Shown piece by piece: positions 14,351-61,933 of a stretch of 64,000 nucleotides of DNA. The position numbers and the translations under genes were made by a program. This stretch comes from a virus. Lineage: Duplodnaviria > Heunggongvirae > Uroviricota > Caudoviricetes. Under the pieces are notes generated by a model that saw only the letters and a program-made list of their open reading frames with translations, did no database searches and was not told where the DNA came from. Each line of letters opens with the position of its first letter. Position 1 is the stretch's first letter. Location: IMG/VR virus record IMGVR_UViG_3300009784_000001, positions 54,418-118,417 of that record. One strand, 5' to 3'.

Positions 14351-14352
14351 TT

Positions 14353-14538: not shown

Positions 14539-14626
14539 ATTATTTAATTTTTATTATTTGTTTGATAACACAAAGATAAGAAATTAATTTGATATTACCT
14601 AATTTATAATGTTAATAATTGTTAAA

Positions 14627-15011: not shown

Positions 15012-15038
15012 AACCTTTTTCACAAAAAGTTATCACCC
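15012..15038 (-). terminator. intrinsic terminator (12-bp perfect stem)
   Basis: Hairpin GATAACCTTTTT-CAC-AAAAAGGTTATC, followed on the minus strand by AUCAUCAUUUUUUU. Confidence 0.55.
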
Positions 15039-15264
15039 CACTATAAAATAATTAACTTACACGACTTATATTTTTTCAGCATATCGGCAACTGTGCTACT
15101 TACACCATAAATCAGGCTGTAATCTGAACCTGTTCCGCATCTGCTCTGTTTCTTTATATAAAAACTTAAAGGAATATAACATCATTCTTTTTACTTATCC
15201 CTGCCCATTTTAACAGCGTTAAAATTGATGTTTGCACTTGATAAAACCTTTAAATTATTTTGTT

Positions 15265-15504
15265 TTATAAATTGAAATATATATCAGGGTTATTTGACAC
15301 ATTATAGATATAAGAACCTTTCTTAATCAACAATGCACCTTTCCCATAGAATTGTTTCTTCATTCCTTTAACACTTCCAGACTTATCAAAATTTGGAAAT
15401 TCACTTAAATCTATTTGAGAAAAAGTAGGTAATATTTTAACAGGAAAATTCTGTGCGTCCCTTGCAAAAGGGTTATAAGGTATATTAATTGTTTTCATAT
15501 TCAT
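15265..15504 (-). CDS. hypothetical protein (79 aa)
   Basis: Track ORF. Confidence 0.4.
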   Translation of the reverse strand: MNMKTINIPYNPFARDAQNFPVKILPTFSQIDLSEFPNFDKSGSVKGMKKQFYGKGALLIKKGSYIYNVSNNPDIYFNL

Positions 15505-15667
15505 AATATTTACATTTATCTACTACTGTATTTTTTTCTATTGAAGAAGAACCCTTTTTATCTCTTTTAACAATGCAAAAACAATTAGTTGGCTCTGAAA
15601 AAATTGAATAAGTCATTCCCAATCTAAAATTTTTACATTCAATACATTTTATTTTTGTTATACTCAT
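15485..15667 (-). CDS. small Cys-containing protein (60 aa)
   Basis: Track ORF. Its ATG lies inside inverted-repeat copy 4. Confidence 0.4.
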   Translation of the reverse strand: MSITKIKCIECKNFRLGMTYSIFSEPTNCFCIVKRDKKGSSSIEKNTVVDKCKYYEYENN

Positions 15668-15674
15668 TTGAGTA
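15661..15674. repeat. TACTCA-TT-TGAGTA inverted repeat, copy 4
   Basis: Exact 14-mer directly 3' of the stop of gene 15680-15913. Confidence 0.7.
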
Positions 15675-15679
15675 TATTA

Positions 15680-15913
15680 TTAAAATGTTATTCTATTTTC
15701 TCTAAAGTACTTTTTGAAATTCGCCTTTACTTCTAACATAGTTACATGCTCCATATAAAACTTTCTACATAATTCTGTTTTTCCTCTCAAAGCTATATAA
15801 CCAATTACACTTTGTTCGTCCGTTCTGTACATTTCCAAATCAAACATTTTTTTATTTGGAATATCAACATCAAACACTTCAACTTTTTTAACAAAATTTT
15901 TTAAGTTAGGCAT
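15680..15913 (-). CDS. hypothetical protein (77 aa)
   Basis: Track ORF. Confidence 0.45.
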   Translation of the reverse strand: MPNLKNFVKKVEVFDVDIPNKKMFDLEMYRTDEQSVIGYIALRGKTELCRKFYMEHVTMLEVKANFKKYFRENRITF

Positions 15914-15920
15914 AATTGTA

Positions 15921-16166
15921 TTACTTTAATAAATCAGTTAATTTTGCTTCAAATTCTTTTTTTGTTACTTCTTCACCATTTACTTTATAGCTTTTCCAGG
16001 GTGATGGATTAGCATGTCTGTAATAATGTTTTGCAGTTTTGTATTCAAATTCATTTTCCTGTAAATTCAGGGTATATTTTGTCCCTGCACTCCCAGCGAA
16101 ACCCCAAGCGTTTGTGCTGTCAAACTTTTCTTTTGTTGCTAATTCTTTGAATCGTATCCAGTTCAT
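15921..16166 (-). CDS. hypothetical protein (81 aa)
   Basis: Track ORF. Confidence 0.45.
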   Translation of the reverse strand: MNWIRFKELATKEKFDSTNAWGFAGSAGTKYTLNLQENEFEYKTAKHYYRHANPSPWKSYKVNGEEVTKKEFEAKLTDLLK

Positions 16167-16251
16167 ATTCGTTTTATTTAATCAGTTAATTATTATAATA
16201 CAAAAGTAAGAAAAAATTATGTAATATCAAAATATTTCAAGTTAATAATTG

Positions 16252-16572
16252 TTAAAACCACTTTTTCAAATCTTTCTTTTTGCAATTTTGAGTAATTTGT
16301 GTATCTACTTTAATGTAATAACCAAAATTGTTATAAATGTTTTTGAAAGTATTAAAACCATCAAAATTCACGTTCAATTGTTTTGCTATTTCTCTAATTG
16401 CATCATATTCCGCTTGATTTCCATACCCATAGCGGAAATCCATATAGAATTCTTCTGCATTGTCCATTCCAAAATTTAACATTACTCTTGCAGCGTAATA
16501 GGTATTGCCATAAGTCTTATCACGCCATTCCCTACTTGAAATTATTACTGATCTTAATTCATTTGCTTTCAT
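16252..16572 (-). CDS. hypothetical protein (106 aa)
   Basis: Track ORF. Confidence 0.5.
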   Translation of the reverse strand: MKANELRSVIISSREWRDKTYGNTYYAARVMLNFGMDNAEEFYMDFRYGYGNQAEYDAIREIAKQLNVNFDGFNTFKNIYNNFGYYIKVDTQITQNCKKKDLKKWF

Positions 16573-16771
16573 TTTATTTACTTATTAATTATTTTATACA
16601 ACAAAGATACAAAAAATATTTTATATAACAATAAAGAATTATGTTAATAATTGTTAAAAAACTATGCAATTTAGTAATCTTAAAAAATATAATAAATGAT
16701 ATAGATATTTTAACTTTTCTAAAAAATGTTAAAAAAAGAGAACTTTCTCGTTCCCTCTTTTCAATATAAAT

Positions 16772-17296
16772 TTATTTTGTCATATAAAATTCCCACAAAT
16801 CCAGGTATTCTGTTCCCACTTCCTTTGCATCCGCTTCATTTTGCAAGTGTAGGCGAGAGGCGCAACCCGCATACGTACACGCATCCTGATAACCCGCATC
16901 ACAGAACCGAAAAGGAGAATCCAGAAAAAACCAAGGATACCATTTTCTTTCATCTTCGTCCTCCCAATTTGGGAACCATCCTTCATTCTTCGCTTCTACA
17001 ACTATTTCTAAAGCCCTTAGTACTGTTGCCCTATTGAGAGCCAAAACTTCAATTTGGTATTCAATATCATTCAAATAATTTTCTCCTTGAGCATCCTTTA
17101 ACATTTGCAAACGTTTTTCATAAAAATTCATAAACTTGCTAAAGCTCCTGCCCAATTTCTCAAAAGCCCATTTTGTTTTGATTAAACAAGGCAATTCTGA
17201 CAGTACCAAATCAGGAAAATTTTGTTCCAAAAATAACTTAAAATCCCCTACTGCTGTAGGATAAAATTTCTTTGCTTGTTCTAATGTAAAATTCAT
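16772..17296 (-). CDS. hypothetical protein, start corrected
   Basis: The track start at 17323 is TTG (MYII is the translated promoter box). The ATG is at 17296. Confidence 0.5.
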   Translation of the reverse strand: MNFTLEQAKKFYPTAVGDFKLFLEQNFPDLVLSELPCLIKTKWAFEKLGRSFSKFMNFYEKRLQMLKDAQGENYLNDIEYQIEVLALNRATVLRALEIVVEAKNEGWFPNWEDEDERKWYPWFFLDSPFRFCDAGYQDACTYAGCASRLHLQNEADAKEVGTEYLDLWEFYMTK

Positions 17297-17361
17297 ATTA
17301 TTTAATTTATTTATGATATACAAAGATAAGATAATTTATTGATATATACAAATTATATAAG

Positions 17362-17583
17362 TTAAAAATTGTTAATATTTTTATTTATATAAGCAATAAC
17401 TTTATACACAGGACGCAAGGATAATAGAAACAAGCCAAATACTGTAACAGCAGTCCAAATTGCAATGTATAAAACGTTCCATTCACAGATATTGACTAAT
17501 ACAGCCAATAAACCTATAATAATCATTCCTATTGAAATAATTGCACCTATCCATGCAAATATACTAAAACCTTTGAATTTCAT
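17362..17583 (-). CDS. small membrane protein (73 aa)
   Basis: Hydrophobic throughout. Confidence 0.45.
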   Translation of the reverse strand: MKFKGFSIFAWIGAIISIGMIIIGLLAVLVNICEWNVLYIAIWTAVTVFGLFLLSLRPVYKVIAYINKNINNF

Positions 17584-17598
17584 ATTTTATATAATTTT

Positions 17599-17874
17599 TT
17601 ATTTTAAATATTGCACACTATATTTATTACAACAAGCTAAAGGATTATTCAAAGTACCACGTATATGCTTTGCAGGAGCACTACAGCTTGCAGCTTTATA
17701 TATATTGCCTTCAAAATCTATAAAAGCATAAACAGACTTGGAGCCCCACATGTTTAAATATATTTTGAAATATTTTTTTCCTTTTTCAAATCCATAGTAG
17801 AAATTATCACCTTCCCCAAATTTTTTATTCAAAAGATTTTTTAACTCTACAATTTTCAAATTTATATTTTCCAT
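17599..17874 (-). CDS. hypothetical protein (91 aa)
   Basis: Track ORF. Confidence 0.45.
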   Translation of the reverse strand: MENINLKIVELKNLLNKKFGEGDNFYYGFEKGKKYFKIYLNMWGSKSVYAFIDFEGNIYKAASCSAPAKHIRGTLNNPLACCNKYSVQYLK

Positions 17875-18033
17875 ACTGTAATTATTTTATATAACAAAGA
17901 TACAAAAAAGTTTTTATATTATCTAATTTATAAAGTTAATAATTGTTAAATATTTTTACTGAAATTAAGAAAGTTAAAATACTTATATTATTAATAGAAT
18001 ATATTTTAACTTTTCACATTACATAAAAAAATT

Positions 18034-18097
18034 AAGGTAGTTCCGAAGCGAATTCCCCAATCTATTATGGGACTTGTATCAAGCGCAGAACTACCTT
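18034..18097 (-). terminator. intrinsic terminator (AAGGTAGTTC / GAACTACCTT stem)
   Basis: A 10-bp stem encloses a loop of about 44 nt, with a plus-strand A-run at 18025-18030 giving the U-run on the minus strand. It lies 3' of gene 18254-18601. Confidence 0.45.
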
Positions 18098-18253
18098 GTT
18101 ATTATTTAATATTATTATATTTTATCAAAATTATTATTGCGGAGGAAATCTTATTCTTTTCATATTTTATTCAATCTATTATATTATTAAATTATTTTTT
18201 ATATAAATTATTTATCGGCTGTCCCCTTATTTTTATCATATTTTCATTCAATT

Positions 18254-18601
18254 TCAAAGTAAAACTCCTGTATTTTGTTCCCAGCTTTGAGTACCTTCAG
18301 AATCTTTATTTATAATCTTTTCGATTTTCAACAAAGCATTTTTGAATAATTCACCCTTTGTAAAATTGCCCCTTGCTTTTTCTCCATTGTGTTTAATACC
18401 ACTTCTCACACCTCCACCCATGTAGTTTCTATACGCCCCAAACTTTGCCACAGGATAACCTAAAATATTGCCACAAATACCCAGTGACCAATTTCTACTA
18501 CCATCAAAGAAGACTGAGCCTTCAGGAACATTTAATTTGTTTTCAAGTGTTTCGATTACTTCTTCAATACTGTTTTCTCTTTTGAATCTGTAAGTTTTCA
18601 T
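18254..18601 (-). CDS. hypothetical protein (115 aa)
   Basis: Track ORF. Confidence 0.5.
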   Translation of the reverse strand: MKTYRFKRENSIEEVIETLENKLNVPEGSVFFDGSRNWSLGICGNILGYPVAKFGAYRNYMGGGVRSGIKHNGEKARGNFTKGELFKNALLKIEKIINKDSEGTQSWEQNTGVLL

Positions 18602-18687
18602 TTTATCTAATCTTTAATATTTGTTTTATTGTATTACAAAGGTAAGAAATTAATTTGAATTACACAATTTTTCAATGTTAATAATTG

Positions 18688-18849
18688 TTAATTTTCAAAT
18701 GTTACATCATCACTCCAATATTCACCTGCTCCATAAGGGCAAGCATTTGCTTCTTCTTGTGCTTCTGTTTCATCACCATATACCCCTCTAAAATTCCAAT
18801 TATTTTCAGGGTCATTATAACCAACTATATAAACTGTTCTTTGTATCAT
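18688..18849 (-). CDS. small acidic protein (53 aa), not in the ORF track
   Basis: Read as ATG at 18849 through to TAA, giving MIQRTVYIVGYNDPENNWNFRGVYGDETEAQEEANACPYGAGEYWSDDVTFEN. A promoter box lies at about 18880-18940. The plus-strand track ORF 18685-18891 is judged spurious. Confidence 0.4.
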   Translation of the reverse strand: MIQRTVYIVGYNDPENNWNFRGVYGDETEAQEEANACPYGAGEYWSDDVTFEN

Positions 18850-19080
18850 ATAATTTTATCTTATTTAATTTATATAATAATACAAAGATAAACATTTTAT
18901 TCCAGATAATCATACATAATGATGTTAATAATTGTTAAAATTTATACATAATATAATCTTAAAAAATATCTTATTTATTAAATATATTTTAACATTTAAC
19001 AATTGTATATAAAAAAAAATAGCTTTCAATACTTTCACTCTGTCCAGCATTAAAAACTATATTTGATTTTATTTAATATG

Positions 19081-19094
19081 TACTCATTTGAGTA
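19081..19094. repeat. TACTCA-TT-TGAGTA inverted repeat, copy 5
   Basis: Exact 14-mer about 58 nt 3' of the stop of gene 19152-19760. Confidence 0.7.
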
Positions 19095-19151
19095 TGCTGT
19101 AAGTATCCTTTCAAAGGTATGACACAAACATACTTTCATAAGTACAAAGTA

Positions 19152-19760
19152 TCAATCCATTCTATAACTTACATTTACATTTTTTATTCCATTTTGCCTG
19201 CAAAAATCAGCCACAAGATGCCAATAACAAAATTGCATTGATAGATCCTGCATCCATATTGCTCCAAAACCAGCACCCATTTTTGTTAATTTATTAATTA
19301 ATTCCGTTCCAAGTTTTTTTGCAACCATGTCTCTCACTTTGGTATCATTTTTGTTTGCAATGGAATTAATTTCAGATGCTTTTTTTGAATTTTTATTATA
19401 TATCATCCACACTTGAGCGCATCCATAACCAAAAAATACATATCTTTTACCATCATCTTTAACAAGTTTTGTATCATTTCCAATAACACTTTTTACCTTA
19501 TAAACTTCAGTATAAAAAGTATCTACAAATTTATCAAGGTTATCTTTCATGTATTGCATAAATTCACTTTCAATTCCTTTGTTTGCTTTTGGCTCTTTTT
19601 TAACAATTACCTTTGTTGTAACTGTTTTATTTTTATTAATACTTTTTCTAATAAGGATGGAGGCTTTTTTCTTTGTAATTCCATCATTAGAATAATCAAC
19701 ACCAGTGTGTTGCAGTAAAACTCTCAATTGTGCCTCTGTAGCAAAATCATTAATATACAT
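19152..19760 (-). CDS. hypothetical protein (202 aa)
   Basis: Track ORF with an ATG start. Confidence 0.5.
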   Translation of the reverse strand: MYINDFATEAQLRVLLQHTGVDYSNDGITKKKASILIRKSINKNKTVTTKVIVKKEPKANKGIESEFMQYMKDNLDKFVDTFYTEVYKVKSVIGNDTKLVKDDGKRYVFFGYGCAQVWMIYNKNSKKASEINSIANKNDTKVRDMVAKKLGTELINKLTKMGAGFGAIWMQDLSMQFCYWHLVADFCRQNGIKNVNVSYRMD

Positions 19761-29517: not shown

Positions 29518-30744
29518 TTATTTTTTTAACTCTATCAAATATTTCATATCACATTGGTTTATATTATATACAACATATTCTGAATTAATTAAATCTGCTC
29601 CACCATGTGCATATACAGAATGAAAAGGTTTAATATTATTTTCATTAAAATTATAACATTCAGAAGTGTGTTTATATATATGCTTTTGATTTCCAAGGTT
29701 AACTCTAAACAAAGCCATATATGCCTTATTATCATTTCCATTTACCCAATATGAACCAGATAATGATGTATAACCAATTGATTTTCTTGCTTTATCAGCA
29801 AAATAAATCCCTTGTGAGCCAAACATTCCACCTGTTATAATAGCACCTGCTGGCCTAATAAGTAAACCACTTTGTAATAATGAAAACCAGTTTTGATTAC
29901 GACTACCATGAAAAAATAGTAATTCATTTTTAATATCCATTGAATTGAATTTTTCATCATATCTTTTTTGGGTTTGTTTATTGATTACTTTAAATATGTT
30001 CCCCATAAGATTGGATGAATCTCCCATTAAAGTTTTGATTGATTGAAGTATTTTTTTATCTTCAATATATTCAACAGTTAATCCTAATTGTTCCAACAAA
30101 TTTTGTTTATTGTTATTATTTTCATTTGTTTTTTCAACTTGAATTGTTGTAACTTGACCTGCTAATGTATCAAGCAATTTTTGTTCGTTATCAATTATCT
30201 TTTCTATTTCAGTTTTATTATTTGATTGAAATAAAAAATCTCGAACATCCCCCATTCTTCTTGGGATAGTTGTATATATTTCAAGTAATAATTTATTTAG
30301 TTCATTATAATTTACTTGATGCTTATAAGCAGATGTTAATTTATCAATTAGTTCTTGAGCAGTATCAATCATTTTTTGAGTTACACTGTTGGCTGATACT
30401 TTGTAGTTTTTTTGGATTGTTTTCTTTGCCCAAGATTGAAGTTCAGAGATAAGATTTTTAACTTTGATATTATCTGATATAAAAATATCTTTATTATTAT
30501 CTGATATAATAGGTTCTTCAACAGCAATTAAATCAGTAATATCTTTATATCCTTTTCGTATTTTTTCTTTATATTTTGATTCCCATTCATGGATGGGATA
30601 GGAGGTATATTGTTTGGAAGAATCCACTCTACCATATTCAACATCAATTTGATTAGTAGAAGTATTTTCAGTCATTTTGTAATATTTATTATGATTCCCC
30701 TTAATTCCTTCAACCAATACTAAATAAGCATATTTACTACTCAT
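29518..30744 (-). CDS. poly(ADP-ribose) polymerase-like ADP-ribosyltransferase (WGR domain plus PARP catalytic domain)
   Basis: The catalytic region FFHGSRNQNWFSLLQSGLLIRP...GGMFGSQGIYFADKARKS...YVVYNINQCDMKYLIELK aligns with PARP1 [22 protein letters not shown]...GYMFGKGIYFAD..SKS...EYIVYDIAQVNLKYLLKLK, including the H-Y-E triad. The N-terminus is WGR-like. Confidence 0.8.
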   Translation of the reverse strand: MSSKYAYLVLVEGIKGNHNKYYKMTENTSTNQIDVEYGRVDSSKQYTSYPIHEWESKYKEKIRKGYKDITDLIAVEEPIISDNNKDIFISDNIKVKNLISELQSWAKKTIQKNYKVSANSVTQKMIDTAQELIDKLTSAYKHQVNYNELNKLLLEIYTTIPRRMGDVRDFLFQSNNKTEIEKIIDNEQKLLDTLAGQVTTIQVEKTNENNNNKQNLLEQLGLTVEYIEDKKILQSIKTLMGDSSNLMGNIFKVINKQTQKRYDEKFNSMDIKNELLFFHGSRNQNWFSLLQSGLLIRPAGAIITGGMFGSQGIYFADKARKSIGYTSLSGSYWVNGNDNKAYMALFRVNLGNQKHIYKHTSECYNFNENNIKPFHSVYAHGGADLINSEYVVYNINQCDMKYLIELKK

Positions 30745-38571: not shown

Positions 38572-39534
38572 TTACTTGTTTAATGGAATTAAATTCAACA
38601 TATATTTTTTTCCTTCTTCACTGTTCATCAGTGGAGCATCATCAATAATCCATTTATTTCTAATAATATCTTCTTTTTGATAATCAAAAAATGTTTCTAT
38701 CAATGGTGTCTTAATAACTGTAGAATATGGTAATAACACTGAATACTGATTATTTATAGTTTGAAAATCTGTATGAATTTCTTTGCCATTAACAAATTTC
38801 TTTTTTGTAATTAATCTACCTCTTTTTTGACCAATAGGATAATCATTCCAATTGATATTTTTCTCTTGAAATAGTAATTCTTGCATTTGATCAGTATTTT
38901 TCTTATGTAATTCTTTTGGTGAAAAATAAGTTTGAGCAGCCATTGAAATGCTATTTCTTACACAATCTAACTGGCGAAATAAGAACCAGGAAAAAGCATC
39001 ATTTTGTGTGGGTACAACAAATGCCCTACAATCAAACTCAGCTAACTTGAAATCTCTGATTTGATCATAAATTGTTAAATCCTTATCAACTTCAACACCA
39101 TCTATTGTTTGTTTATATTGTTCTCCAAACTCATCACAAAATCCTTCACATTTTTGATTTTCCAATTTTCTAACCATTCTTAATTGATTGAATTTGGAAG
39201 CTGCCATTGAAGCTGCAAGAGAGTTAATCTTACATAATCTGTAATCAAACCATGCTTGTTTTTCTCTTGTATCATAATCACAAACAAAAATACTTATTTC
39301 ATCAGATTGAACAAATGCAAATAATGCTCCTGAAATATTGGAACATAGATATTTTGCAGTTTCATTCATATCTTCGATGAAACCTGTATCAAATGGTTTT
39401 TCAAGTTTATTCTTAAATTGATGGGAAAAGGAACGACCATCTAACACCATAATAACATATGATTTTACTGGTAGTTTATAATCACATAAACCTCTATAGT
39501 ATAACATTCTATCTTCTAATTTATTCCATTTCAT
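38572..39534 (-). CDS. Thg1-like protein (tRNA-His guanylyltransferase / 3'-5' nucleotidyltransferase family)
   Basis: LPVKSYVIMVLDGRSFSHQF...EKPFD...SDEISIFV aligns with yeast Thg1 LPQCYIVVRIDGKKFHEF...AKPNDE...ESDEYSFIL. There is a C-terminal extension of about 80 aa. Confidence 0.8.
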   Translation of the reverse strand: MKWNKLEDRMLYYRGLCDYKLPVKSYVIMVLDGRSFSHQFKNKLEKPFDTGFIEDMNETAKYLCSNISGALFAFVQSDEISIFVCDYDTREKQAWFDYRLCKINSLAASMAASKFNQLRMVRKLENQKCEGFCDEFGEQYKQTIDGVEVDKDLTIYDQIRDFKLAEFDCRAFVVPTQNDAFSWFLFRQLDCVRNSISMAAQTYFSPKELHKKNTDQMQELLFQEKNINWNDYPIGQKRGRLITKKKFVNGKEIHTDFQTINNQYSVLLPYSTVIKTPLIETFFDYQKEDIIRNKWIIDDAPLMNSEEGKKYMLNLIPLNK

Positions 39535-40474
39535 ATTTTGTCCAACCTCTATACTTTTTAATCTTATTATTTTTTAATTTTAACAAATAATCATATCCCA
39601 AATCATTTTCCTTTGCAAAGCCCTTCAAATCCAAAATGTGATGAATTTTTTCATCAGGAGATTTTAAATCACATTCACCTCTATTTTTTTTTACATATAT
39701 ACCATTCTTTTTACAATAGTACAAAACTAATCCACTATCCAAATTTAATTTTAAACCTATATTATTTACATTTTCACCATCCTTGTGCATTTCTAATATA
39801 GTTGGGATTAAATATTTATGATCTTTGAAACCATTTTTTTCAATATTTTTATTTTTATATGGATATACAACCCATTTATGCTTATAATCTTCAAAAGGAC
39901 ATTTGCCAATATCTTTTAAAAATTTTTCAACATTTCTTCTTGGAATATTAATAATAGGTTTTTTTTCATTAAATCCTATTTTTGCTTCATATTCTTTTAA
40001 TTGTTTAATTAATATGTTTTCTATCTCTTCACAACAAAAAGAATTTGTTGATAATTTTATATTATTTGTTACACATTCATTTTCTCTATTATCTATTGAA
40101 CCATCTCCTAGATACCATATCAAATTACATAATTTATCAAGTTTTAAATCTAAGGGAACCATTTTTTTATCATTAGGATACCATTTTTCTTTCAATTCAT
40201 ACCAGAATAAATTTGATTTTGCTGATAATCTAAATTCTTTATAAATTTTATTTGTTCTTTTATCATAATATTCATAACTTTGAGGATGATTATCACACCA
40301 TACATATTCTGGTAATAATTTTTTGATAAACATTATAAATTCTAAAGAAGAACTGTTTAAGAAAAAATTAAAACTTTTTTTATTAATTCCTCCATCACTT
40401 AATAATAAACCATTTATAACTGACATTTCTTTTTCATTAAAAGAAAATTTTTCATATTTCCATTTTTTATTCAT
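39521..40474 (-). CDS. LAGLIDADG homing endonuclease (double-motif, free-standing)
   Basis: Motif 1 INGLLLSDGGI and motif 2 LIWYLGDGSI sit about 100 aa apart. The ORF overlaps the Thg1-like start by 14 nt. Confidence 0.7.
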   Translation of the reverse strand: MNKKWKYEKFSFNEKEMSVINGLLLSDGGINKKSFNFFLNSSSLEFIMFIKKLLPEYVWCDNHPQSYEYYDKRTNKIYKEFRLSAKSNLFWYELKEKWYPNDKKMVPLDLKLDKLCNLIWYLGDGSIDNRENECVTNNIKLSTNSFCCEEIENILIKQLKEYEAKIGFNEKKPIINIPRRNVEKFLKDIGKCPFEDYKHKWVVYPYKNKNIEKNGFKDHKYLIPTILEMHKDGENVNNIGLKLNLDSGLVLYYCKKNGIYVKKNRGECDLKSPDEKIHHILDLKGFAKENDLGYDYLLKLKNNKIKKYRGWTKYEME

Positions 40475-40522: not shown

Positions 40523-40690
40523 TTAATCTTCATTAGTTTTTTTAGTTCTTGATAAAAATACCCAAGCTAATGCTGGAGCAAATAATATAGATGAAATTAT
40601 TAAATTAACTTCATTTTCAGGATATATTATAGCTATAAGCCAATATATAAACACCAATACAAGTGCTATAATACTTAATTTTTTATTCAT
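40523..40690 (-). CDS. small membrane protein (55 aa), not in the ORF track
   Basis: ATG at 40690 and a promoter box at about 40700-40740. Sequence MNKKLSIIALVLVFIYWLIAIIYPENEVNLIISSILFAPALAWVFLSRTKKTNED. Confidence 0.35.
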   Translation of the reverse strand: MNKKLSIIALVLVFIYWLIAIIYPENEVNLIISSILFAPALAWVFLSRTKKTNED

Positions 40691-40953: not shown

Positions 40954-41166
40954 TCAGAATGGAGTGATAGGAGAATTATCAGCCTCTAATTTATTTGTTT
41001 TTGTATTAAAAACTATCCCTGTATTATGTGAAATGGCTTCATTTGGATGTTTGGAAGCATATCTTAAAGCCTTAATATTATAATAAGTTTCACCAAGTTT
41101 ACCAATCGCCCAACAAAGAAGAATTGTAACTATTATTGTTACTACTAATACTATAATAATTTTCAT
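40954..41166 (-). CDS. small membrane protein (70 aa)
   Basis: N-terminal transmembrane segment. Overlaps the ClpX-like stop. Confidence 0.4.
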   Translation of the reverse strand: MKIIIVLVVTIIVTILLCWAIGKLGETYYNIKALRYASKHPNEAISHNTGIVFNTKTNKLEADNSPITPF

Positions 41167-42266
41167 ATTATTTGATTTTTACTTATTACATATTCTTTGG
41201 TTACATTTACTTTTTTAATTCCTTTTTCTGGAATTTCAAAAGCATAATCCTGTAATATTTTTTCAAGAATATTTCTTAAACTTCTTGCCCCTGTCTTTAA
41301 GTTTATAGCTATTTTAGCTATTTCGGTAAGTGCATCTTCATCAAATGAAAGAGAACAATCATCCATTGAAAATAATTGTTTGAATTGCTTTATAATAGCG
41401 TTCTTTGGTTTAATTAAAATATTAACAAGCATTTCTTCTGTTAATGGATTTGTATTTGTCATAATTGGAAATCTACCAATTAATTCAGGAATTAAACCAA
41501 ATGATCTTAAATCATCTGGAATTGCATATTTAAGAATTTCATTTTCATTGATATTTTTCCTTTCATTAGAAACATTAAATCCTACTTTATTAACATTTAA
41601 TCGTTTTTTTATTTTTTTATCAATACCTTCAAATGCTCCCATTCCAATGAACAGCACATTTTTTGTATTAAATGAAATTGTAGGTTTATCAGGATGTTTT
41701 CTTTGACCATCTGTTTGAATTTCTACTATACTATCTTCCAATAATTTTAATAATCCTTGTTGAACTCCTTCACCAGAAACATCACGAGTGACTGATGGAT
41801 TTTCAGATTTTCTTCCTATCTTATCAATTTCATCTAAGCATATTATGGACATTTCAGCTTGTTTAAGATTACCATTTGCAGCTTTTAATGCACCAACCAA
41901 AACAGTTTCAATATCTGATCCAACATAACCACTTTCAGTTAATGTTGTGCAATCAGCAATATAACAGGGAACATTTAAGAATTTAGCAATTGTTTTTACT
42001 ATATAACTTTTTCCTGTTCCAGTTTCCCCTAAAATAATCACATTTGATTTATCAATTTCAATAGTATCATTTTCCATATCATTATTATTGATAATTCTTT
42101 TATAATGATTATAAACTGCTGTACATAGTACTCGTTTTGTTTCTTCTTGCCCAATGACATATTGATCAAGATATTCTTTTAATTGATGTGGTTTAATTGC
42201 ATTTAATATTGGGACATTATTATCAATCAAATCCTTATATATATCTATTCTATTTAAATTATTCAT
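41163..42266 (-). CDS. ClpX-like AAA+ ATPase (no N-terminal zinc-binding domain)
   Basis: YVIGQEETKRVLCTAVYNHYKRI, the Walker A motif GETGTGKS, TLTESGYVGSD, an IGF-like VGF loop and the sensor LIGRFP all parallel E. coli ClpX. Confidence 0.8.
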   Translation of the reverse strand: MNNLNRIDIYKDLIDNNVPILNAIKPHQLKEYLDQYVIGQEETKRVLCTAVYNHYKRIINNNDMENDTIEIDKSNVIILGETGTGKSYIVKTIAKFLNVPCYIADCTTLTESGYVGSDIETVLVGALKAANGNLKQAEMSIICLDEIDKIGRKSENPSVTRDVSGEGVQQGLLKLLEDSIVEIQTDGQRKHPDKPTISFNTKNVLFIGMGAFEGIDKKIKKRLNVNKVGFNVSNERKNINENEILKYAIPDDLRSFGLIPELIGRFPIMTNTNPLTEEMLVNILIKPKNAIIKQFKQLFSMDDCSLSFDEDALTEIAKIAINLKTGARSLRNILEKILQDYAFEIPEKGIKKVNVTKEYVISKNQII

Positions 42267-44224: not shown

Positions 44225-44659
44225 TTATAATAATTTTAATTCTTTTGTAAACTCATCAATATCTTCATTCCACCAGGGCCCTATACCAACACAAGTTTTG
44301 GTTTTAATTCCATGAAATTCTGTTAATCCAGCATCTTCAATCATAACACAAGGTATTTCAGGTTTTTCAGAAGTTATTTTATTATATAGATTTACTAATT
44401 CTTCTTCTGATTCTACATATAAACATATTTTAGTAAATATACCATTTAACCATTTATCTAATACTCCATCTTTTTCAAATCTTGTTTCGTAGCAAGTCAT
44501 TACAGGAGCTTTGGTAAAATTAGGGGTATAATCATATTTATTAAATAACTGTAATAAGGCTCCTAAACTCGCATGAGAACCTTGGGCAATTAATTTGCCT
44601 TTCCTCATATTGAGGTCTTTTCTAACTACTATAACTTGTTTAACATTTTCCATATTCAT
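44225..44659 (-). CDS. peptidyl-tRNA hydrolase, PTH2 family
   Basis: VVRKDLNMRKGKLIAQGSHASLGA compares with archaeal and eukaryotic PTH2 VVRTDLKMGKGKIAAQCSHA. Confidence 0.8.
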   Translation of the reverse strand: MNMENVKQVIVVRKDLNMRKGKLIAQGSHASLGALLQLFNKYDYTPNFTKAPVMTCYETRFEKDGVLDKWLNGIFTKICLYVESEEELVNLYNKITSEKPEIPCVMIEDAGLTEFHGIKTKTCVGIGPWWNEDIDEFTKELKLL

Positions 44660-52864: not shown

Positions 52865-55800
52865 TTATGAACAAGCTGACCATCCGCAATTAGTACATTT
52901 TTTACATCCATTTTCATATATAATAGAATTTGTTAATCCACATTCAGGACAAGTTTCATTAATATTACCTTCTTTTTTCTCTAAATATCTATTTAAGATT
53001 CTTGCACAAACACTGCTGAATGAAGTAATACTATCATCATACTTTTTGAAGGTTTTAATAATATATTCAAGTCCTATTCCATGCCTTAATTCTAATGAAG
53101 TACGAGTACAATGCCTTTTTTCTTCTTCACTGTTAAATTCTGTTAAGTTAGGAATTGTGATAAATTCTGAATCAAATTTATATAAGTTCTTTTTTATTTT
53201 TGTTATTGTACCTCTATGTTCTTTTATTTTATTAAAGGAGGTTTTTAATTCAATATTTTCAAGTGTTGGGATGAAACAAAATAATTCATAAGGCATTTCG
53301 CAATATAAACCAATGATAATAATATAATTTTGACCTTTATATTTTATTTTATAAAAATCACTAGTTAATGTTTTTGGACGTTTAGGAGCATTATGTGTTG
53401 CAAAGTCTTTACAAGGATCGTCATTTTTTTTATCTGTTGCCACTAAAACACCACTTCGAGAACCTTCTCTATATATTGTACAACCTTTTAAGTTATATTT
53501 GAATACATTTTTATAAATTTCATCTACTTCTTTAATAGTTACATTTTGAGGAAGATTAATTGTAGATGAAATGGAAGAAGTTATAAATTCTTGTATTAAT
53601 CCTTGTATTTTAACTCTTTCAACCCAATTAATATCATTTGCAGTTTGTTTATAGTATGGTGATTCTTCATAAACTCTTTGCCAATCTGTATTTTCCCACC
53701 CATTATATTCATTTAAACCTCTACTAGCAAGAAAATATTCTTTTAATTTTGGATGAACAACAACAAATTCCTTAAATCCTTTACCATTTTCATCAATGTA
53801 ATCGGCAGTTTCTCCTGGGGTTAATACTCTTCTTCTTACATAAAATGGTAAAAATAATGGTTCAATACCAGAAGTAGTTTGAGTCATTACTGATACTGTG
53901 CCAGTTGGGGCTAATGTACTAATTCCCGAATTTCTTCTTCCATATTTTAGCATTCTTATAGTTTGAGAAGGAAATTCATCAATAATAAATTGATACCATT
54001 CATTATTTCCTATTAAATCAATATATGTATTTTCACTATCTGAAACTTCATGAAACTCTTTATTTTTATCCCATAATGGAAATGTACCTTTCAAAATAGC
54101 TAAATCAATAGAAGCATCCAATTCATTTTCAAGTTTTAATTTCATCACCTTTTGAAGTATGTCAAAATCTCCATAAGGCTTATTTAACGCTGCAAACATA
54201 TCACCTAAAGCTGTGTAACCAGTTCCTGTTCTTCTACCTAAAGAACCTATATTTTTTATTTCTTCCCACAATTTAATTTCAAGTTTTTTACTCTTTGAAC
54301 TTTTTGATAAAAGTAATAAAATTCTATCAACTGCTTCAATTTCTAAGTCAACAATTAAATCAGTCATAACTTGAATTTCATAAAAAATCTCTTTCATCAA
54401 ATCCTTGTCAATAGAACTATTTTCTGTAAAGGGGGAAGATACCATTGAGTAAAGATTAGTAGCCATTAAACGACATGAATCTTTTGGAGCCAAACTTAAT
54501 TCACCACATGGATTTGTAGATACGGCTTTGAGTTCTTTATATATTGATGTGGGGTCATAATTTATCATTCTATCCCAATTTAAAAATCCTGGTTCGGCAT
54601 GATTTCTATTGGAATAAACAAATTCATCCCATATTTCTTTTGCTTTTACCATTTTTATATAACCTTTATGAGTACCATCAATATTAACCAGATTGTATAA
54701 GTGATTATATAAAAAGTAATCTTTTTTAATATGTTCTATATTATATTTCAAAACTTCTTCATCAATTTTTAAATCACAAGGAAATCTCAATATATAATCT
54801 TCATCATTTTCAAGTGCTTGCATAAATTCATCATTAAATTTAATAGATATGTTAGCATTTGTTATAGCATTTGTATTTTGTTTACATTTAATAAAATCTA
54901 ATATATCAGGATGATTGATATCCATTGAAATCATCATAGCCATTTTACGACTTGATTGCCCTATAATTTTGCCTATTACATCATATATTTGCATCCAATC
55001 AACAGGACCAGAAGAAATTTTTGCTGAATTATTAACAGCAGCATTATTGGGTCTTAAATTTGAAATGTCAATACCACAATTATGAATGTTAACAAACCCA
55101 AAATTACTACCACAATAATAATTATTATTATCTTCAACAACTATATCTATATATTTATATTTTATATTATTATCTTCTATTATAGATTTTACTTGAGTTC
55201 TCGATAGTATTTCAAATAATTTAGAATTATTAATTAAACCAATTTTATTAAACAAATATAATGCAGCTTTTCCACATGATCTTTCTTTATTTAAATTAAT
55301 TCTGTTAGCTTTAAATAAATTATATTCTCTTTTATTAAGTCCCAAAGAAGATATTTTTACATTATTTATTAATTCTATCTCTTCATTAAGAAGTTTTATT
55401 TTCCCAGATTGATGCCTATAACTTCTTTCTTTCATCCTATTTAATTTATCTGGATGAATTACATAATTCATTATTTCAGTATATATATCAGAATCTTTAT
55501 AGATATGTAATCTATATAAATTATTTTCATTATTTTTTTTAGGATATCTAATATTTACACTATATCTTTGACCAATTGAAGATAAATAAAATGATATATC
55601 ATCAATAGCATTTTTTGAAGTTATATCAATATCAATTTTACCTTCCTTTCTAATATGACCATCAGAATCAATTAAGCCAGCAAGAAATGGTATCCACAAA
55701 TTATTTTTATTTATAAAATTTGGAACACTCCAAGTATATGTTTTTTTATTAATTTGATTATCTAAAAAATTATCTATAATATAAACACCATCTATACTTG

Positions 55801-56851
55801 AAACTCTAAATTCCCAACATTCGCTTTTATAAGATTTTCTTTTAACTTTTGTAACTAATGATATATTTTCATTATTAATCATTTTTGAAAAAATACTCCT
55901 ATATTTTTCAATAATCTCTTTATTGTTTCCAATAATACTAAAAACACCAGCATAATATCCATATTGTTTTGGAATAGTTAGTCTAGCTGAACCATCACCC
56001 ATATGACAACCAATCCACCAACCAATTTCATCATAATTATTTAAAATATGCTTATATGATTTACCAGAAATAGTTTTATTAAATGTTTTGTCTAATAAAC
56101 CGCTATTATAATTTTCATATCCATATTCCTTTTCTTTTAATACTAATAATGGATGTTTTTTTGATGTTTTTAAATTAATACCATTATTATATTGTATATC
56201 TATTTGTTCATTTTGTAAAACTTCTGTATAAAATTTATCTGTAATTTTTTTCCATTCATCAATTTTAGCATTAATATTAAAACTTAAAACCATATCACCA
56301 ATATTTACATCTTTTATTGGTATAATACCTTTATCTTTCACTAAAATTTTTGAATTTTCTTCAACACAACCCCCACGGCGTTTTCCTACTTGCCCCATTT
56401 CCATAACAGAAATTAGAATATCCTCAATAGAATCTTCTACTGCATCAACTACAAAACAATTGGAAATTGAAGTAGGAGAATTTGTTCCTAAGTTTTCCAT
56501 TATTGAACCACCTGGAATTATATATCTATATCCTTTCAAATAAAAATAAAAATGTTCCTCTAATTCTTCTAATGTTGCATTTTTTAATTTATCAAAACGT
56601 TTTTTTCCAGTATCAGATAATAATTCATATTTGGTTTTATCTATTTTTTGAAAATAATTAAATTCTATTCTTGCAAATTCTTTAGCATATCTTCTATGAC
56701 TATCATCAGGAGTTAATTCACATAAATTTTTATTTTCATCTTTTAAACAATACTTTTTAATCCATGTAGTTGTAGCTAATTCATCATTGTTAAAGTACTT
56801 GAGGGTGGCATTGTAAACCTCATCATAACTATAATTTTTATTTTCGATCAT
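52865..56851 (-). CDS. ribonucleotide reductase large subunit, class II-like, interrupted by an intein
   Basis: Active-site STNPCGELSL, finger loop SGPVDWM and a C-terminal Cys cluster. There is no ATP cone. The track start at 56857 is TTG; the ATG is at 56851. Confidence 0.85.
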   Translation of the reverse strand: MIENKNYSYDEVYNATLKYFNNDELATTTWIKKYCLKDENKNLCELTPDDSHRRYAKEFARIEFNYFQKIDKTKYELLSDTGKKRFDKLKNATLEELEEHFYFYLKGYRYIIPGGSIMENLGTNSPTSISNCFVVDAVEDSIEDILISVMEMGQVGKRRGGCVEENSKILVKDKGIIPIKDVNIGDMVLSFNINAKIDEWKKITDKFYTEVLQNEQIDIQYNNGINLKTSKKHPLLVLKEKEYGYENYNSGLLDKTFNKTISGKSYKHILNNYDEIGWWIGCHMGDGSARLTIPKQYGYYAGVFSIIGNNKEIIEKYRSIFSKMINNENISLVTKVKRKSYKSECWEFRVSSIDGVYIIDNFLDNQINKKTYTWSVPNFINKNNLWIPFLAGLIDSDGHIRKEGKIDIDITSKNAIDDISFYLSSIGQRYSVNIRYPKKNNENNLYRLHIYKDSDIYTEIMNYVIHPDKLNRMKERSYRHQSGKIKLLNEEIELINNVKISSLGLNKREYNLFKANRINLNKERSCGKAALYLFNKIGLINNSKLFEILSRTQVKSIIEDNNIKYKYIDIVVEDNNNYYCGSNFGFVNIHNCGIDISNLRPNNAAVNNSAKISSGPVDWMQIYDVIGKIIGQSSRKMAMMISMDINHPDILDFIKCKQNTNAITNANISIKFNDEFMQALENDEDYILRFPCDLKIDEEVLKYNIEHIKKDYFLYNHLYNLVNIDGTHKGYIKMVKAKEIWDEFVYSNRNHAEPGFLNWDRMINYDPTSIYKELKAVSTNPCGELSLAPKDSCRLMATNLYSMVSSPFTENSSIDKDLMKEIFYEIQVMTDLIVDLEIEAVDRILLLLSKSSKSKKLEIKLWEEIKNIGSLGRRTGTGYTALGDMFAALNKPYGDFDILQKVMKLKLENELDASIDLAILKGTFPLWDKNKEFHEVSDSENTYIDLIGNNEWYQFIIDEFPSQTIRMLKYGRRNSGISTLAPTGTVSVMTQTTSGIEPLFLPFYVRRRVLTPGETADYIDENGKGFKEFVVVHPKLKEYFLASRGLNEYNGWENTDWQRVYEESPYYKQTANDINWVERVKIQGLIQEFITSSISSTINLPQNVTIKEVDEIYKNVFKYNLKGCTIYREGSRSGVLVATDKKNDDPCKDFATHNAPKRPKTLTSDFYKIKYKGQNYIIIIGLYCEMPYELFCFIPTLENIELKTSFNKIKEHRGTITKIKKNLYKFDSEFITIPNLTEFNSEEEKRHCTRTSLELRHGIGLEYIIKTFKKYDDSITSFSSVCARILNRYLEKKEGNINETCPECGLTNSIIYENGCKKCTNCGWSACS
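55079..56368 (-). mobile_element. intein (430 aa) with a double-motif LAGLIDADG homing endonuclease, inside the RNR gene
   Basis: Begins CVEENSKILVKDKG and ends VNIHN followed by a +1 Cys. HE motifs are GWWIGCHMGDGS and FLAGLIDSDGHI. Codons at both junctions were checked on the sequence: Cys is tgt at 56368-56366 and Asn is aat at 55081-55079. Confidence 0.85.
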
Positions 56852-56985
56852 AAACAATATTTGTAAATTTTATTTTTTGGTAAGAAATAAATACTATCAA
56901 ATGTACCAAAATAATCTGATTTTTTTTAATTTTATTTTAAAACTCTGTTAAACAAAAGTATATTTTTTAAAATAAAAACACAACA

Positions 56986-60253: not shown

Positions 60254-61933
60254 TTAATTTAATTTTAATTCTTCAAATGTTGTTGTTATTTCAGGCTTAT
60301 TTAATCCTGTTGATAATGGAAATTTAATTGTTGGATAAGGATTATAATCATTAATTAAAAATGATTTTGAAGATAATAAAGTAAATAACTCTGTTAATTC
60401 TTCACTCTCATATATTTTTTTATCTTTAAGTTTATTTTCAACAATTTCTAAAAATTTATTTGTATTCTTATCTCCATAATTCCAATCTAACCAAGGTAAT
60501 TTTCTTGGTTCTCTTTGTAATTGTTCTAAACATCCTTCAATTTGATTTTCATATAGATGACAAGAATTACCATGCCATTTAAATTTACCTGGCTTATAGC
60601 CTGTAATTTTAGCTAATATATGTAGTAAAAAGGCGTAACTTGCTATATTAAATGGCAACCCTAAAGCCCAATCTACGCTGCGTTGTACCATTAATAAATC
60701 TAAAAATTCTCCTTTTCTAATATTGGTAGAAAATAAAATATGACAAGGAGGTAAACAAACTTCATTATTTTCTAAAACCATTGGATCCCAGGACAAAACT
60801 TGTTGGTATCTAGAATTTGGATTTGATAATATCAAATTAATTAAATTTTTAATTTGATCAATACCATTATCTATATTTTTTCTAACTAATGTAAATCCTT
60901 TATATGATTTATCATTACCACTTAACAAACTATAAAAAGAATCTTCGTTCAAATTATTTTTTTTAACAAATAAAGGAACATTATCTATTAAATATTCAAA
61001 GCCATCTTTATTTTTAATAATATATTTTTTATGTTGAGTAGATATATTTTCCATTTTAGTGGCAAATTTACATGTTGTTTTAGAATACAATAAACCATTT
61101 CCATTAATATCTTTATCTAATTCATATAATTTCCATTGTTTTATTTTTAATTCATAGTTTGGTATATCTTTAATATCCTCCAAAAAATATTCAAAACATT
61201 TCCATCTATTGGATACTCTTACTCCTCTTCCCCCATAATTTTTATATCCAATATTATTTTCATTATAACATCTATCAATCATATGTTCCCATATTTTTTT
61301 AAATTTTATTGTCAAAATATCTTTTTTATTATATATACCAGTACAAGCCACATTTAAATATTTTGGAAAATAAGGATCATAAATACTTCTATCTTTTATA
61401 TGTTCTTCTCTAATAGCTGTTTTATATCCAGTATTTAAAAAATAAATTTCAAATATTTTATGCCTATTTTCTAAATAACATAAATTAGATCTTACAAAAT
61501 CTCCATAATTTTTACTATGGTATATTTCCAAATTCATATTTTCTGGAATGTCATTCAATTTAATAGTAAATGGTTTTTTATCAGGATAACCTATTATTTT
61601 TTTTGCACCAAAACTGCGCCAAAAATAGGGATAAGATTTCCCTAAAATAGTTGCACTTTCTTTATCCCATCTTTTAACATCATCATCCCATATATGACAA
61701 TTATTTTCATGTAAATATTCTAATGTTACTTTCCCTTTTAGAAAAAAAATTAATTCACTAATTATGCCTTTTGTATACATTTTTTTTGTTGTAAGTAAAG
61801 GAAATCCATCATTCATATCAAATTCTAAATCCAAAACAAAAAGTTCACGTGTTCTTGGCATGTTTTCTCTAGCTGGATCTTTAATATCGCCATTTACCAG
61901 AATTTCTTTCATTAAATCTAAATATTGTTTCAT
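60254..61933 (-). CDS. thyA: thymidylate synthase (ThyA family) with a large in-frame insertion
   Basis: N-terminus MKQYLDLMKEIL...FPLLTTKK and C-terminal LPPCHILF...QRSVDWALGLPFNIASYAFLLH...REPRKLP. A conserved Asn in PFN indicates uracil specificity. The protein is 559 aa against about 264 aa for the E. coli enzyme. Confidence 0.85.
   Translation of the reverse strand: MKQYLDLMKEILVNGDIKDPARENMPRTRELFVLDLEFDMNDGFPLLTTKKMYTKGIISELIFFLKGKVTLEYLHENNCHIWDDDVKRWDKESATILGKSYPYFWRSFGAKKIIGYPDKKPFTIKLNDIPENMNLEIYHSKNYGDFVRSNLCYLENRHKIFEIYFLNTGYKTAIREEHIKDRSIYDPYFPKYLNVACTGIYNKKDILTIKFKKIWEHMIDRCYNENNIGYKNYGGRGVRVSNRWKCFEYFLEDIKDIPNYELKIKQWKLYELDKDINGNGLLYSKTTCKFATKMENISTQHKKYIIKNKDGFEYLIDNVPLFVKKNNLNEDSFYSLLSGNDKSYKGFTLVRKNIDNGIDQIKNLINLILSNPNSRYQQVLSWDPMVLENNEVCLPPCHILFSTNIRKGEFLDLLMVQRSVDWALGLPFNIASYAFLLHILAKITGYKPGKFKWHGNSCHLYENQIEGCLEQLQREPRKLPWLDWNYGDKNTNKFLEIVENKLKDKKIYESEELTELFTLLSSKSFLINDYNPYPTIKFPLSTGLNKPEITTTFEELKLN
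60863..61603 (-). other. in-frame inserted domain of about 247 aa within thyA carrying an HNH-family homing-endonuclease-like module
   Basis: WEHMIDRCYNENNIGYKNYGGRGVRVSNRW ... ELDKDINGNGLLYSKTTCKFATKMEN matches the W..M..RC.N...Y.NYGGRGI.V / LDRID..G.Y..NC.W pattern of phage HNH-type endonucleases. It sits in the ThyA small-domain variable loop, after YPYFWRSFGA. There are no intein splice motifs. Confidence 0.55.

Follow-up and report, generated by a model that had tools for sequence, protein, structure and literature searches.

The stretch of DNA analysed here (hereafter the window) comprises 64,000 nucleotides (nt) of a tailed virus, positions 54,418 to 118,417 of IMG/VR record IMGVR_UViG_3300009784_000001, and is a portion of a 359,962-bp metagenomic contig (ENA ERZ27257292); a 71.6-kb Logan contig carries these genes as well. 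The virus is a jumbo phage of around 360 kb with a GC content of about 26% (26.2% in the window). Deposited phages include no close DNA relative of it and, judged by similarity of the Thg1 protein discussed below, the nearest are the Lak megaphages at 40-47% identity. Our subject is a pair of genes lying head to tail on the minus strand of the window: a LAGLIDADG homing endonuclease gene and, immediately downstream, a gene encoding a Thg1-like protein (TLP). A first-pass annotation, made by a model from the DNA letters alone, had remarked on this pair. Its observation was largely right, two of its points failing (the rarity of Thg1 in phages and a C-terminal extension, see below), and the open reading frame (ORF) coordinates of both genes are borne out, as is their overlap:

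38572..39534, minus strand: gene of the Thg1-like protein, a TLP-type 3'-5' nucleotidyltransferase of 320 amino acids (aa); Pfam, PHROG, BtTLP match, AlphaFold2/Foldseek
39521..40474, minus strand: free-standing LAGLIDADG homing endonuclease gene, 317 aa; Pfam, PHROG, AlphaFold2/Foldseek, GC content
39521..39534, minus strand: 14-nt overlap between the endonuclease stop and the Thg1 start (…GGTTGGACAAAATATGAAATGGAATAA…)

Neither gene has a paralog elsewhere in the window, and neither product is matched by an NCBIfam model. A scan of the window for promoters and terminators gave no more hits than did shuffled sequences, the AT-rich DNA making such a scan uninformative. Similarly tight spacing of the two genes is seen in relatives, with a 5-nt gap at locus L008 and a 4-nt overlap at L009 (related loci are designated by L and a number).

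The Thg1-like ORF matches the Pfam Thg1 family (PF04446) with 73.3 bits against a cut-off of 29.2, and PHROG 4717, 'tRNA-His guanylyltransferase', at E = 8e-65. In a phmmer search its best solved relative is BtTLP, from Bacillus thuringiensis (4KGK, E = 5e-43), with the eukaryotic Thg1 proteins of Candida, human and yeast matching more weakly (E = 1.7e-8 to 4e-7), and the ranking of folds by Foldseek likewise places BtTLP ahead of eukaryotic Thg1. The AlphaFold2 model, built on 20 homologs (predicted template modelling (TM) score 0.80), has 4kgm/4kgk as its top Foldseek matches, with a TM-score of 0.88 over the target, and 32 out of 32 matches at E<=1e-3 are Thg1 or TLP structures. Residues D32, S77, D78 and E79 do not vary in the 20-sequence alignment; the first lies in the motif VLDGRSF, while SDEISIF holds D78 and E79. 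In the phmmer pairwise alignment D32, D78 and E79 map to D30, D75 and E76 of BtTLP, its metal-site carboxylates (equivalent to D29, D76 and E77 of hTHG1; Hyde et al. 2013, PMC3701042). The conserved catalytic core claimed by the first-pass annotation thus stands, with the PF04446 match, both motifs and their carboxylates all present. Since the Thg1 profile is supported and the catalytic residues are there, the 320-aa protein is, by sequence, a member of the Thg1 family of the bacterial/archaeal TLP type, with a catalytic core that looks intact. By analogy with characterized enzymes it would add templated nucleotides to tRNA 5' ends, in repair or maturation, during infection.

The same annotation had described a C-terminal extension of about 80 aa. 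Instead, the C-terminal end is conserved, aligning with the C-terminus of BtTLP and retaining R292, W295, DAP and IP in all homologs of the 20-sequence alignment. The surplus length of around 75 residues is made up of two internal variable loops, both modelled with low AlphaFold confidence. The first of these is shared with four homologous proteins in the alignment (P0002-P0005); the second is, from the model, probably disordered. A further peculiarity is that R14 and V30 occupy the places of BtTLP E12 and R28 (E13/R27 in ScThg1), described as a salt-bridged pair at the nucleotidyl-transfer site (PMC3701042). The two positions covary in an alignment of 111 phage Thg1 sequences, of which 61 have E/R and 32 have R plus a hydrophobic residue; the catalytic Asp is kept in 110. 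This looks like a concerted swap in a jumbo-phage clade, a clade-level variant and not decay. The relevant positions are as follows:

39439..39441, minus strand: codon of the catalytic Asp32 (= BtTLP D30), invariant; the cassette insertion or junction point in relatives (see below)
39298..39306, minus strand: codons S77-D78-E79, the second carboxylate motif (= BtTLP S74?/D75/E76), invariant
39061..39177, minus strand: Thg1 internal insertion 1, a lineage-specific loop, aa ~120-158, in a gap between BtTLP-matched stretches; predicted local distance difference test score (pLDDT) 53-72
38683..38793, minus strand: Thg1 internal insertion 2, a variable loop, aa ~248-284, from the alignment; pLDDT <50 for aa 263-286
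39493-39495 and 39445-39447, minus strand: codons of R14 and V30, respectively

The neighbouring endonuclease ORF matches Pfam LAGLIDADG_2 (PF03161) with 64.8 bits (cut-off 25) and also PHROG 11023. Its AlphaFold2 model has a pLDDT of 93, and the top Foldseek matches of its core are I-SceI and I-WcaI (TM-score 0.73-0.75, root-mean-square deviation 2.5 A). Thirty-two family members share one architecture of ~310-325 aa, and the 317-aa window ORF is full length. Invariant among them are G22 and D27 in the first motif and W120, G123, D124 and G125 in the second; the window protein retains 19 of 19 invariant family positions, both catalytic Asp residues included. A conserved linker, PYKNKNIEKNG, precedes the C-terminal tail across the family. 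Tails of other members match Pfam I-HmuI_NUMOD-like (P0147, 27.7 bits) and HTH_38 (P0131); that of the window protein aligns with these and has no Pfam hit of its own. The gene has a GC content of 21.7%, below its neighbours and the 26.2% of the window. It is an entity in its own right, having its own start and stop codons beside a Thg1 gene that is uninterrupted. Neither the window nor any of five related loci gave an Rfam match to an intron or another structured RNA, and Pfam reveals no Hint or intein domain with either gene. An endonuclease encoded in a group I intron was accordingly rejected: there is no Rfam intron, the window Thg1 is contiguous, and the 5' end of Thg1 in relatives is duplicated, not spliced. 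This evidence identifies the 317-aa protein as a LAGLIDADG homing endonuclease, monomeric and I-SceI-like, with a putative DNA-binding tail.

39920..40423, minus strand: two-motif LAGLIDADG nuclease core, aa 18-185, carrying the invariant motif residues
40394-40396 and 40103-40105, minus strand: codons of the catalytic Asp27 and Asp124, respectively
39524..39829, minus strand: C-terminal tail, aa 216-317, with helix-turn-helix (HTH)-like and NUMOD-like modules, from the alignment; confidently modelled

The first two homologs of the endonuclease (47% and 42% identity) each lie directly upstream of a Thg1 gene in neighbourhoods that otherwise differ. We therefore consider the association more broadly, across 106 loci with endonuclease relatives scanned using hidden Markov models (HMMs), a score of at least 240 defining close relatives. 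Of the close endonuclease ORFs that are distinct and evaluable, 39 out of 41 are directly followed by Thg1 on the same strand, as are three of 35 distant relatives. The association is patchy when viewed from the side of Thg1. The endonuclease occurs at four of the best 80 IMG/VR Thg1 loci (~5%, from two distinct genomes) and at six of 76 close relatives of the L032 Thg1. A tree of 111 Thg1 cores places carriers beside non-carrier sisters at eight or more points, and one large clade consists almost entirely of carriers. A search of 50,697 deposited phage genomes found no member of this endonuclease clade and 13 distant hits, one of them located within the DNA polymerase gene of Bacillus phage phiNIT1, which is split. 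The literature searched contained no paper combining LAGLIDADG with Thg1, while 'Thg1-like' with 'phage' gave irrelevant matches only. The endonuclease lineage is previously undescribed and, by its gene neighbourhoods, specific to phage Thg1 genes. That a selfish LAGLIDADG gene had homed in beside Thg1 was suggested in the first-pass annotation and finds stronger evidence than its reader could know: the 39/41 pairing in the clade, the patchiness, and a syntenic relative (L006) lacking the gene.

How the endonuclease gene is inserted can be read from pairs of syntenic loci of which one partner lacks it. There are four such pairs: the window with L006, L009 with L125, L064 with L136 and L033 with L202. 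Movement is also evident as discordance of identities, endonucleases being 99-100% identical where the adjacent Thg1 cores are just 75-78% identical, with the reverse also seen (Thg1 87%, endonuclease 52%). In DNA identity profiles of L032 against L031, L033, L099 and L034 the flanks are at random level on both sides of a ~1.2-kb near-identical block made up of the endonuclease gene and the first ~30 Thg1 codons, beyond which the rest of Thg1 falls to 82-90%. There are 1-4 mismatches across positions 3805-5018, and mismatches restart 12-27 nt past the Asp codon. In L009, L031-34, L097, L099 and L101 the N-terminal codons of Thg1 occur twice, the additional copy lying shortly before the endonuclease gene. 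The remnant in the L031 group matches the N-terminus of the closest non-carriers, homology ending seven codons short of the Asp; in L009, a member of the same subfamily as the window, it ends one or two codons before it. The cassette junctions of L009 and the L031-34 group lie 0-7 codons from the Asp codon. In one of the pairs, L033 790-3117 equals L202 1-2328 at 92% identity, L033 3711-3810 equals L202 2877-2976 and L033 5017-5942 equals L202 2999-3942. In the filled allele, then, a cassette of 1,206 nt stands in place of 22 nt present in the empty one (CGTTGCCCAGTTATATGTCGGA). Junctions of this type recur in L032, L034 and L101, and comparison of L009 with L125 shows the 5' duplication in syntenic context. 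At the level of aligned sequence, these comparisons establish both the anatomy of the cassette and its horizontal spread in the relatives. We infer that cleavage would occur in the ~22-bp region of the catalytic motif, with the remnant and the Thg1 body serving as the two homology arms.

L202 2977-2998: candidate target in the L033 sister subclade (CGTTGCCCAGTTATATGTCGGA), together with the adjacent Asp codon (CGTTGCCCAGTTATATGTCGGA followed directly by TTGATGG)
L030 3068-3930, L079 4091-4420, L018 3657-3959 and L085 140-538: decaying endonuclease copies beside Thg1

The last of these are fragments with frame breaks and, as predicted, fit the expectation of a homing cycle. The Thg1 N-termini apparently missing from some relatives were also considered as exons lying upstream of the endonuclease. 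Those codons in fact immediately precede the rest of Thg1, either in a different frame or separated from it by a single stop, and the gene is therefore not split.

For the window itself the closest syntenic relative is L006, which by tblastx and blastn shares a ClpX-like ATPase, a small ORF and Thg1, and has no endonuclease. It lacks ~1.09 kb that in the window hold a 55-aa ORF and the endonuclease gene, the right junction falling exactly at the Thg1 ATG. The 55-aa ORF may be part of this extra DNA. The window displays the right half of the L009-type structure, in which the 3' end of the endonuclease gene overlaps a complete Thg1 start. Horizontal spread of the window copy is indicated indirectly. 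The three Thg1s closest to that of the window (68%, 58% and 56% core identity) all lack the endonuclease, and the nearest endonucleases to that of the window (45-48%) adjoin Thg1s that are 41-43% identical to the window's. With an ORF of full length and none of the family's invariant residues lost, the window endonuclease would be either still active or only recently idle.

40523..40690, minus strand: 55-aa hydrophobic ORF, absent from L006; from synteny, GC 22.6%, no family hit
39442..39534, minus strand: Thg1 codons 1-31, R14 and V30 among them, the segment that is cassette-borne or duplicated in L009 and L031-34; for the window a predicted assignment

Put together, these results make it very likely that the locus combines a TLP-type Thg1 gene with a Thg1-specific homing endonuclease that moves as a gene-end-replacing cassette. 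A useful gene would thus be joined to a parasite of that same gene. In the relatives, sequence comparison shows the element to be a cassette of ~1.0-1.2 kb consisting of the endonuclease gene and a replacement copy of the first ~30 Thg1 codons. On co-infection, the enzyme would cut endonuclease-free Thg1 alleles at the DNA encoding the catalytic 'xDG(R/K)xF' motif, and recombinational repair would then copy the cassette into the cut allele, replacing ~22 nt. The old 5' end, having acted as left homology arm, would be left upstream as a remnant, while the new start and N-terminus provided by the cassette would keep Thg1 functional.

Several observations weigh against this picture. No Thg1 5' remnant is found upstream of the window endonuclease, either by HMM or by Smith-Waterman comparison, where scores lie within shuffle distributions, and no near-identical relative of the window endonuclease was found, the best being 48% identical; the target site and recent mobility of the window copy are therefore extrapolated from L009 and the sister subclade. 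Two close endonuclease relatives, in L036 and L073, do not adjoin Thg1. Endonuclease and Thg1 divergence are correlated (Spearman 0.86, 946 pairs), so that much of the history must have been co-inheritance, with transfers superimposed. Linkage of phage Thg1 to tRNA or repair genes is weak. Finally, since the canonical E12/R28 pair is replaced, the chemistry or substrate of the window Thg1 could differ from those of the TLPs studied so far.

In L036 (3992-5286, on a 364.7-kb contig) the endonuclease relative, with an HMM score of 385, has an unrelated gene of 118 aa next to it in place of Thg1; this may be a case of retargeting.

The correlated divergence, together with strict adjacency and tight stop/start coupling, might be read as the mark of a LAGLIDADG protein that has been domesticated as an immobile, translationally coupled partner of Thg1, either maturase-like or a DNA/RNA-binding regulator like WhiA, and Foldseek does return WhiA and the bI3 maturase among its LAGLIDADG folds. 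Yet it is two active nucleases, I-SceI and I-WcaI, that match best in fold, neither catalytic Asp varies among the 32 members, and the endonuclease accompanies just ~5-8% of Thg1 genes. Copies that are 100% identical across otherwise unrelated genomes, syntenic empty sites and decaying copies are equally out of keeping with a fixed partnership, which we regard as most improbable. The same low credence attaches to a two-gene mobile island in which Thg1 travels as cargo and no resident Thg1 is targeted. The flanks of L031-34, unalignable on both sides while endonuclease and Thg1 are conserved, and the widely differing Thg1 neighbourhoods among phages would suit it, but identity falls inside Thg1, from 100% to 82-90%, at the Asp codon and not at the gene end. 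Moreover, the pairs window/L006, L009/L125 and L033/L202 keep Thg1 in place without the endonuclease, all empty sites found retain Thg1, and the endonuclease is preceded by what remains of the resident 5' end.

It is also conceivable that in the window the two genes are neighbours as a decayed, immobile relic, with the endonuclease inactive or its targets extinct, the association drifting and Thg1 an ordinary auxiliary gene. To the missing remnant of the old 5' end and the 48% identity of the nearest endonuclease, already mentioned, can be added the lack of a demonstrable conversion tract for the window copy. Against these stand the full-length ORF (317 aa, compared with 311-327 in the family), the retention of both catalytic Asp residues and all 19 invariant positions, and the pLDDT of 93, making a relic very unlikely. 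A gene-end-replacing cassette aimed at Thg1 is thus the explanation we favour.

In one gut-phage subclade among the relatives the cassette is joined to its target in an unexpected way. The 5' segment carried by the cassette and the body of Thg1 are in different frames where they join, at CGT CTT T / GAC GG. Frame 0 reads Arg-Leu-stop, and a +1 slip on CUU UGA C would give Arg-Leu-Asp-Gly, the consensus catalytic motif. The break falls one codon before the catalytic Asp, as CUU UGA C or as CUU-stop-CUN. The former is present in L017, L031-34, L067, L097, L099 and L101, with CUU UGA U in L018; sister alleles have CTT TAG CTA GAC or CTT TAA CTG GAT, from which a Leu-to-Leu hop would yield the same peptide. 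Reassignment of a single codon was rejected as a cause of these in-frame stops, TAG, TAA and TGA all being found at the same site. The joints are located as follows:

L014 4869-4886, L017 5104-5121, L025 4848-4865, L030 3921-3938 and L031 3060-3077: broken joint
L032-34 and L101 5004-5021, L067 1208-1225 and L069 3149-3166: broken joint

The co-occurrence of the frameshift with the endonuclease was assessed in 76 classifiable relatives of the L032 Thg1, fetched regardless of endonuclease presence, with these results:

In frame at the site: endonuclease present 2, absent 68
CGT CTT T GAC frameshift: endonuclease present 4, absent 0
Broken elsewhere in the gene: endonuclease present 0, absent 2

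The +1 site is thus limited to carriers (4/6, compared with 0/70 non-carriers). The downstream frame is open for 226-269 aa in 13 of 14 alleles, with a dN/dS ratio of 0.12-0.30. We do not take that ratio as proof of current function, since the cassette spread recently and the divergence may predate the invasion. The site is kept across cassettes whose endonucleases are just 37-67% identical, each 5' segment encodes a Thg1-like N-terminus ending exactly at the site, and the Leu codon is CTT in eight of eight alleles. Programmed recoding at the joint in these relatives seems, from such patterns, a probable explanation.

A precedent is the shifty stop of prfB, encoding RF2, which is CUU UGA with C at +4 (PMC13245932). 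The relatives share with it the CUU UGA C sequence, at which slippage of tRNA-Leu to UUU would put GAC (Asp) in frame. They differ in position, at a junction between cassette and target gene, and in having no stimulator resembling a Shine-Dalgarno sequence upstream of the CUU UGA C sites. It is plausible that the extra base or bases shield the carrier allele (CGTCTTTGAC) from putative self-cleavage. The window copy has no frameshift of the CUU UGA C type, its Thg1 being in frame at the site (ATT ATG GTG TTA GAT GGT). A single scheme might unite these observations: an invasion of the Thg1 catalytic codons, free of intron and intein, by an element bringing its own 5' end and having, in one subclade, a joint (the +1 frameshift or the Leu-to-Leu hop) that both destroys the recognition sequence of the endonuclease and permits full-length Thg1, the window copy being an older one whose remnant has eroded. 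We offer this tentatively, leaning somewhat against it. If true, translational recoding would take the role that splicing plays for endonucleases borne by introns and inteins.

The first-pass annotation had called Thg1 rare in phages. This does not hold: by tblastn it is present in 156 records of phages in GenBank (phages of Bacillus, Mycobacterium and Caulobacter and Lak phages among them), a two-pattern scan finds it in 552 IMG/VR contigs, it has its own PHROG (4717), and both Thg1 and PTH2 already figure in the RNA-repair genes that Iyer et al. (2021, PMC7824862) list for jumbo phages. The window does encode a PTH2 (44225..44659, minus strand; Pfam PF01981, 111.9 bits), and the earlier suggestion was of a tRNA toolkit countering host nucleases. 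That idea had been put forward previously (PMC7824862) and the locus adds no support to it. PTH2 is 4.7 kb from Thg1, with unrelated genes between, and is absent from eight of eight other Thg1 neighbourhoods with gene families listed (L003, L005-L009, L197 and L198, L006 being short). The 64-kb window has no tRNA genes, and the annotation available for it includes no RNA ligase, CCA-adding enzyme or kinase. More widely, a tRNA gene lies within 3.5 kb of Thg1 at eight of 60 phage loci, and is tRNA-His in none of the eight. What has been proposed for the function of Thg1 and PTH2 is reasonable, but it is in print already and is not strengthened by the window locus.

Some Thg1 neighbourhoods elsewhere deserve mention. 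The sole repair-like one seen is that of L005 (1-6861 of a 388-kb contig), where the genes upstream of Thg1 encode a CCA-adding enzyme, an RlaP nucleotidyltransferase and a protein weakly matching RNA ligase, and an RNase T gene is close by. In three related viral contigs (L153 3176-3270, L154 677-771 and L157 662-756) ARAGORN predicts, ~230 nt upstream of Thg1, a tRNA-like gene of 95 nt whose anticodon has four bases (acaa). In L198 (276-kb contig) a gene for a 374-aa GIY-YIG protein, at 8265-9389, lies ~460 nt downstream of Thg1 and may represent a second kind of endonuclease near Thg1.

Other genes of the window can be summarized briefly. A ribonucleotide reductase large subunit of 1330 aa (52865-56857, minus strand) has a LAGLIDADG_3/Hom_end domain at aa ~390-458, between its N-terminal domain and barrel, which is probably an intein with its own homing endonuclease. 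A 559-aa thymidylate synthase (60254-61933, minus strand) has a split Pfam match, with aa 353-540 covering profile positions 104-264, and this suggests an insertion of ~250 aa, an intein or other element. The ClpX equivalog at 41163-42266 (minus strand; NF003745, 469 bits) matches from profile position 58 and so seems, by sequence, to be without the N-terminal zinc-binding domain; no ClpP partner is present in the window annotation. A PARP-domain protein of 408 aa (29518-30744, minus strand) lies in a block with NUDIX, Band_7, DNMK kinase and thioredoxin genes. Finally, the 18 kb from 689 to 19152 contain no ORF of 200 aa or more under table 11 and are packed with small genes without Pfam matches. 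Stop-codon recoding was considered for the window and rejected, as freeing TAG or TGA barely lengthens ORFs.

As to wider significance, the Thg1 gene adds little, phage TLPs having been catalogued already and their role only inferred. The endonucleases are of more consequence. They form a natural family of I-SceI-like enzymes with modular tails and a well-delimited candidate target, the DNA for a polymerase-like active site, and dozens of naturally filled and empty sites offer a read-out of specificity of value to homing biology and meganuclease engineering alike. By bringing its own copy of a gene end, the element would exemplify a third route to harmlessness besides introns and inteins. The CUU UGA C sites provide testable cases of programmed recoding tied to a mobile element. 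For annotation, the cassette accounts for some phage Thg1 genes that appear frameshifted or truncated.

Comparison with known systems may be made protein by protein and then for the element as a whole. The window Thg1 shares with BtTLP its fold, the three metal-site carboxylates, the preceding Ser and a Lys-Pro-Phe-Asp stretch, and differs in its two lineage-specific loops (~75 aa) and in R14/V30. With the phage Thg1s already known (PHROG 4717; PMC7824862) it shares a sporadic occurrence in large phages. The endonuclease resembles I-SceI and I-WcaI, which are encoded by mitochondrial group I introns, in core fold, in belonging to LAGLIDADG_2 and in having two motifs each with an Asp. Unlike them it is free-standing, hosted by a phage and equipped with an additional ~100-aa HTH/NUMOD-like tail, of the kind found in phage HNH and GIY-YIG endonucleases.

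The free-standing enzymes of T4 are GIY-YIG or HNH proteins, whereas the present family is LAGLIDADG. Intronless homing by free-standing phage endonucleases is documented for the Seg and Mob proteins of T4 (reviewed in PMC2988022) and for mobE (PMC2790892). Features in common are a gene lying beside or between conserved genes, its presence or absence among related phages, and spread along with flanking DNA by gene conversion, seen here as identity tracts and empty sites. The element of the relatives differs from the T4 cases in lying inside its target gene, in carrying a replacement 5' end and in leaving a duplicated remnant upstream.

A parallel comes from mitochondria: a hybrid atp6 gene of Allomyces, attributed to Paquin and colleagues in 1994, is reportedly the product of a free-standing endonuclease gene that arrived together with a substitute for the gene's terminus. 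Elements that integrate into a tRNA gene and restore it are a related case. In both the Allomyces-type system and the present one the element comes with a copy of one terminus of the gene it targets; that gene remains whole, and the displaced terminus persists as a remnant. Here, however, it is the 5' end with a new start codon that is replaced, not the 3' end, the host is a phage and the target is Thg1; in one subclade, furthermore, the junction needs translational recoding. Judged from these sequence comparisons, this mode of insertion, by a gene-end-replacing cassette with a putative recoding joint in one subclade, is a new form of free-standing homing.

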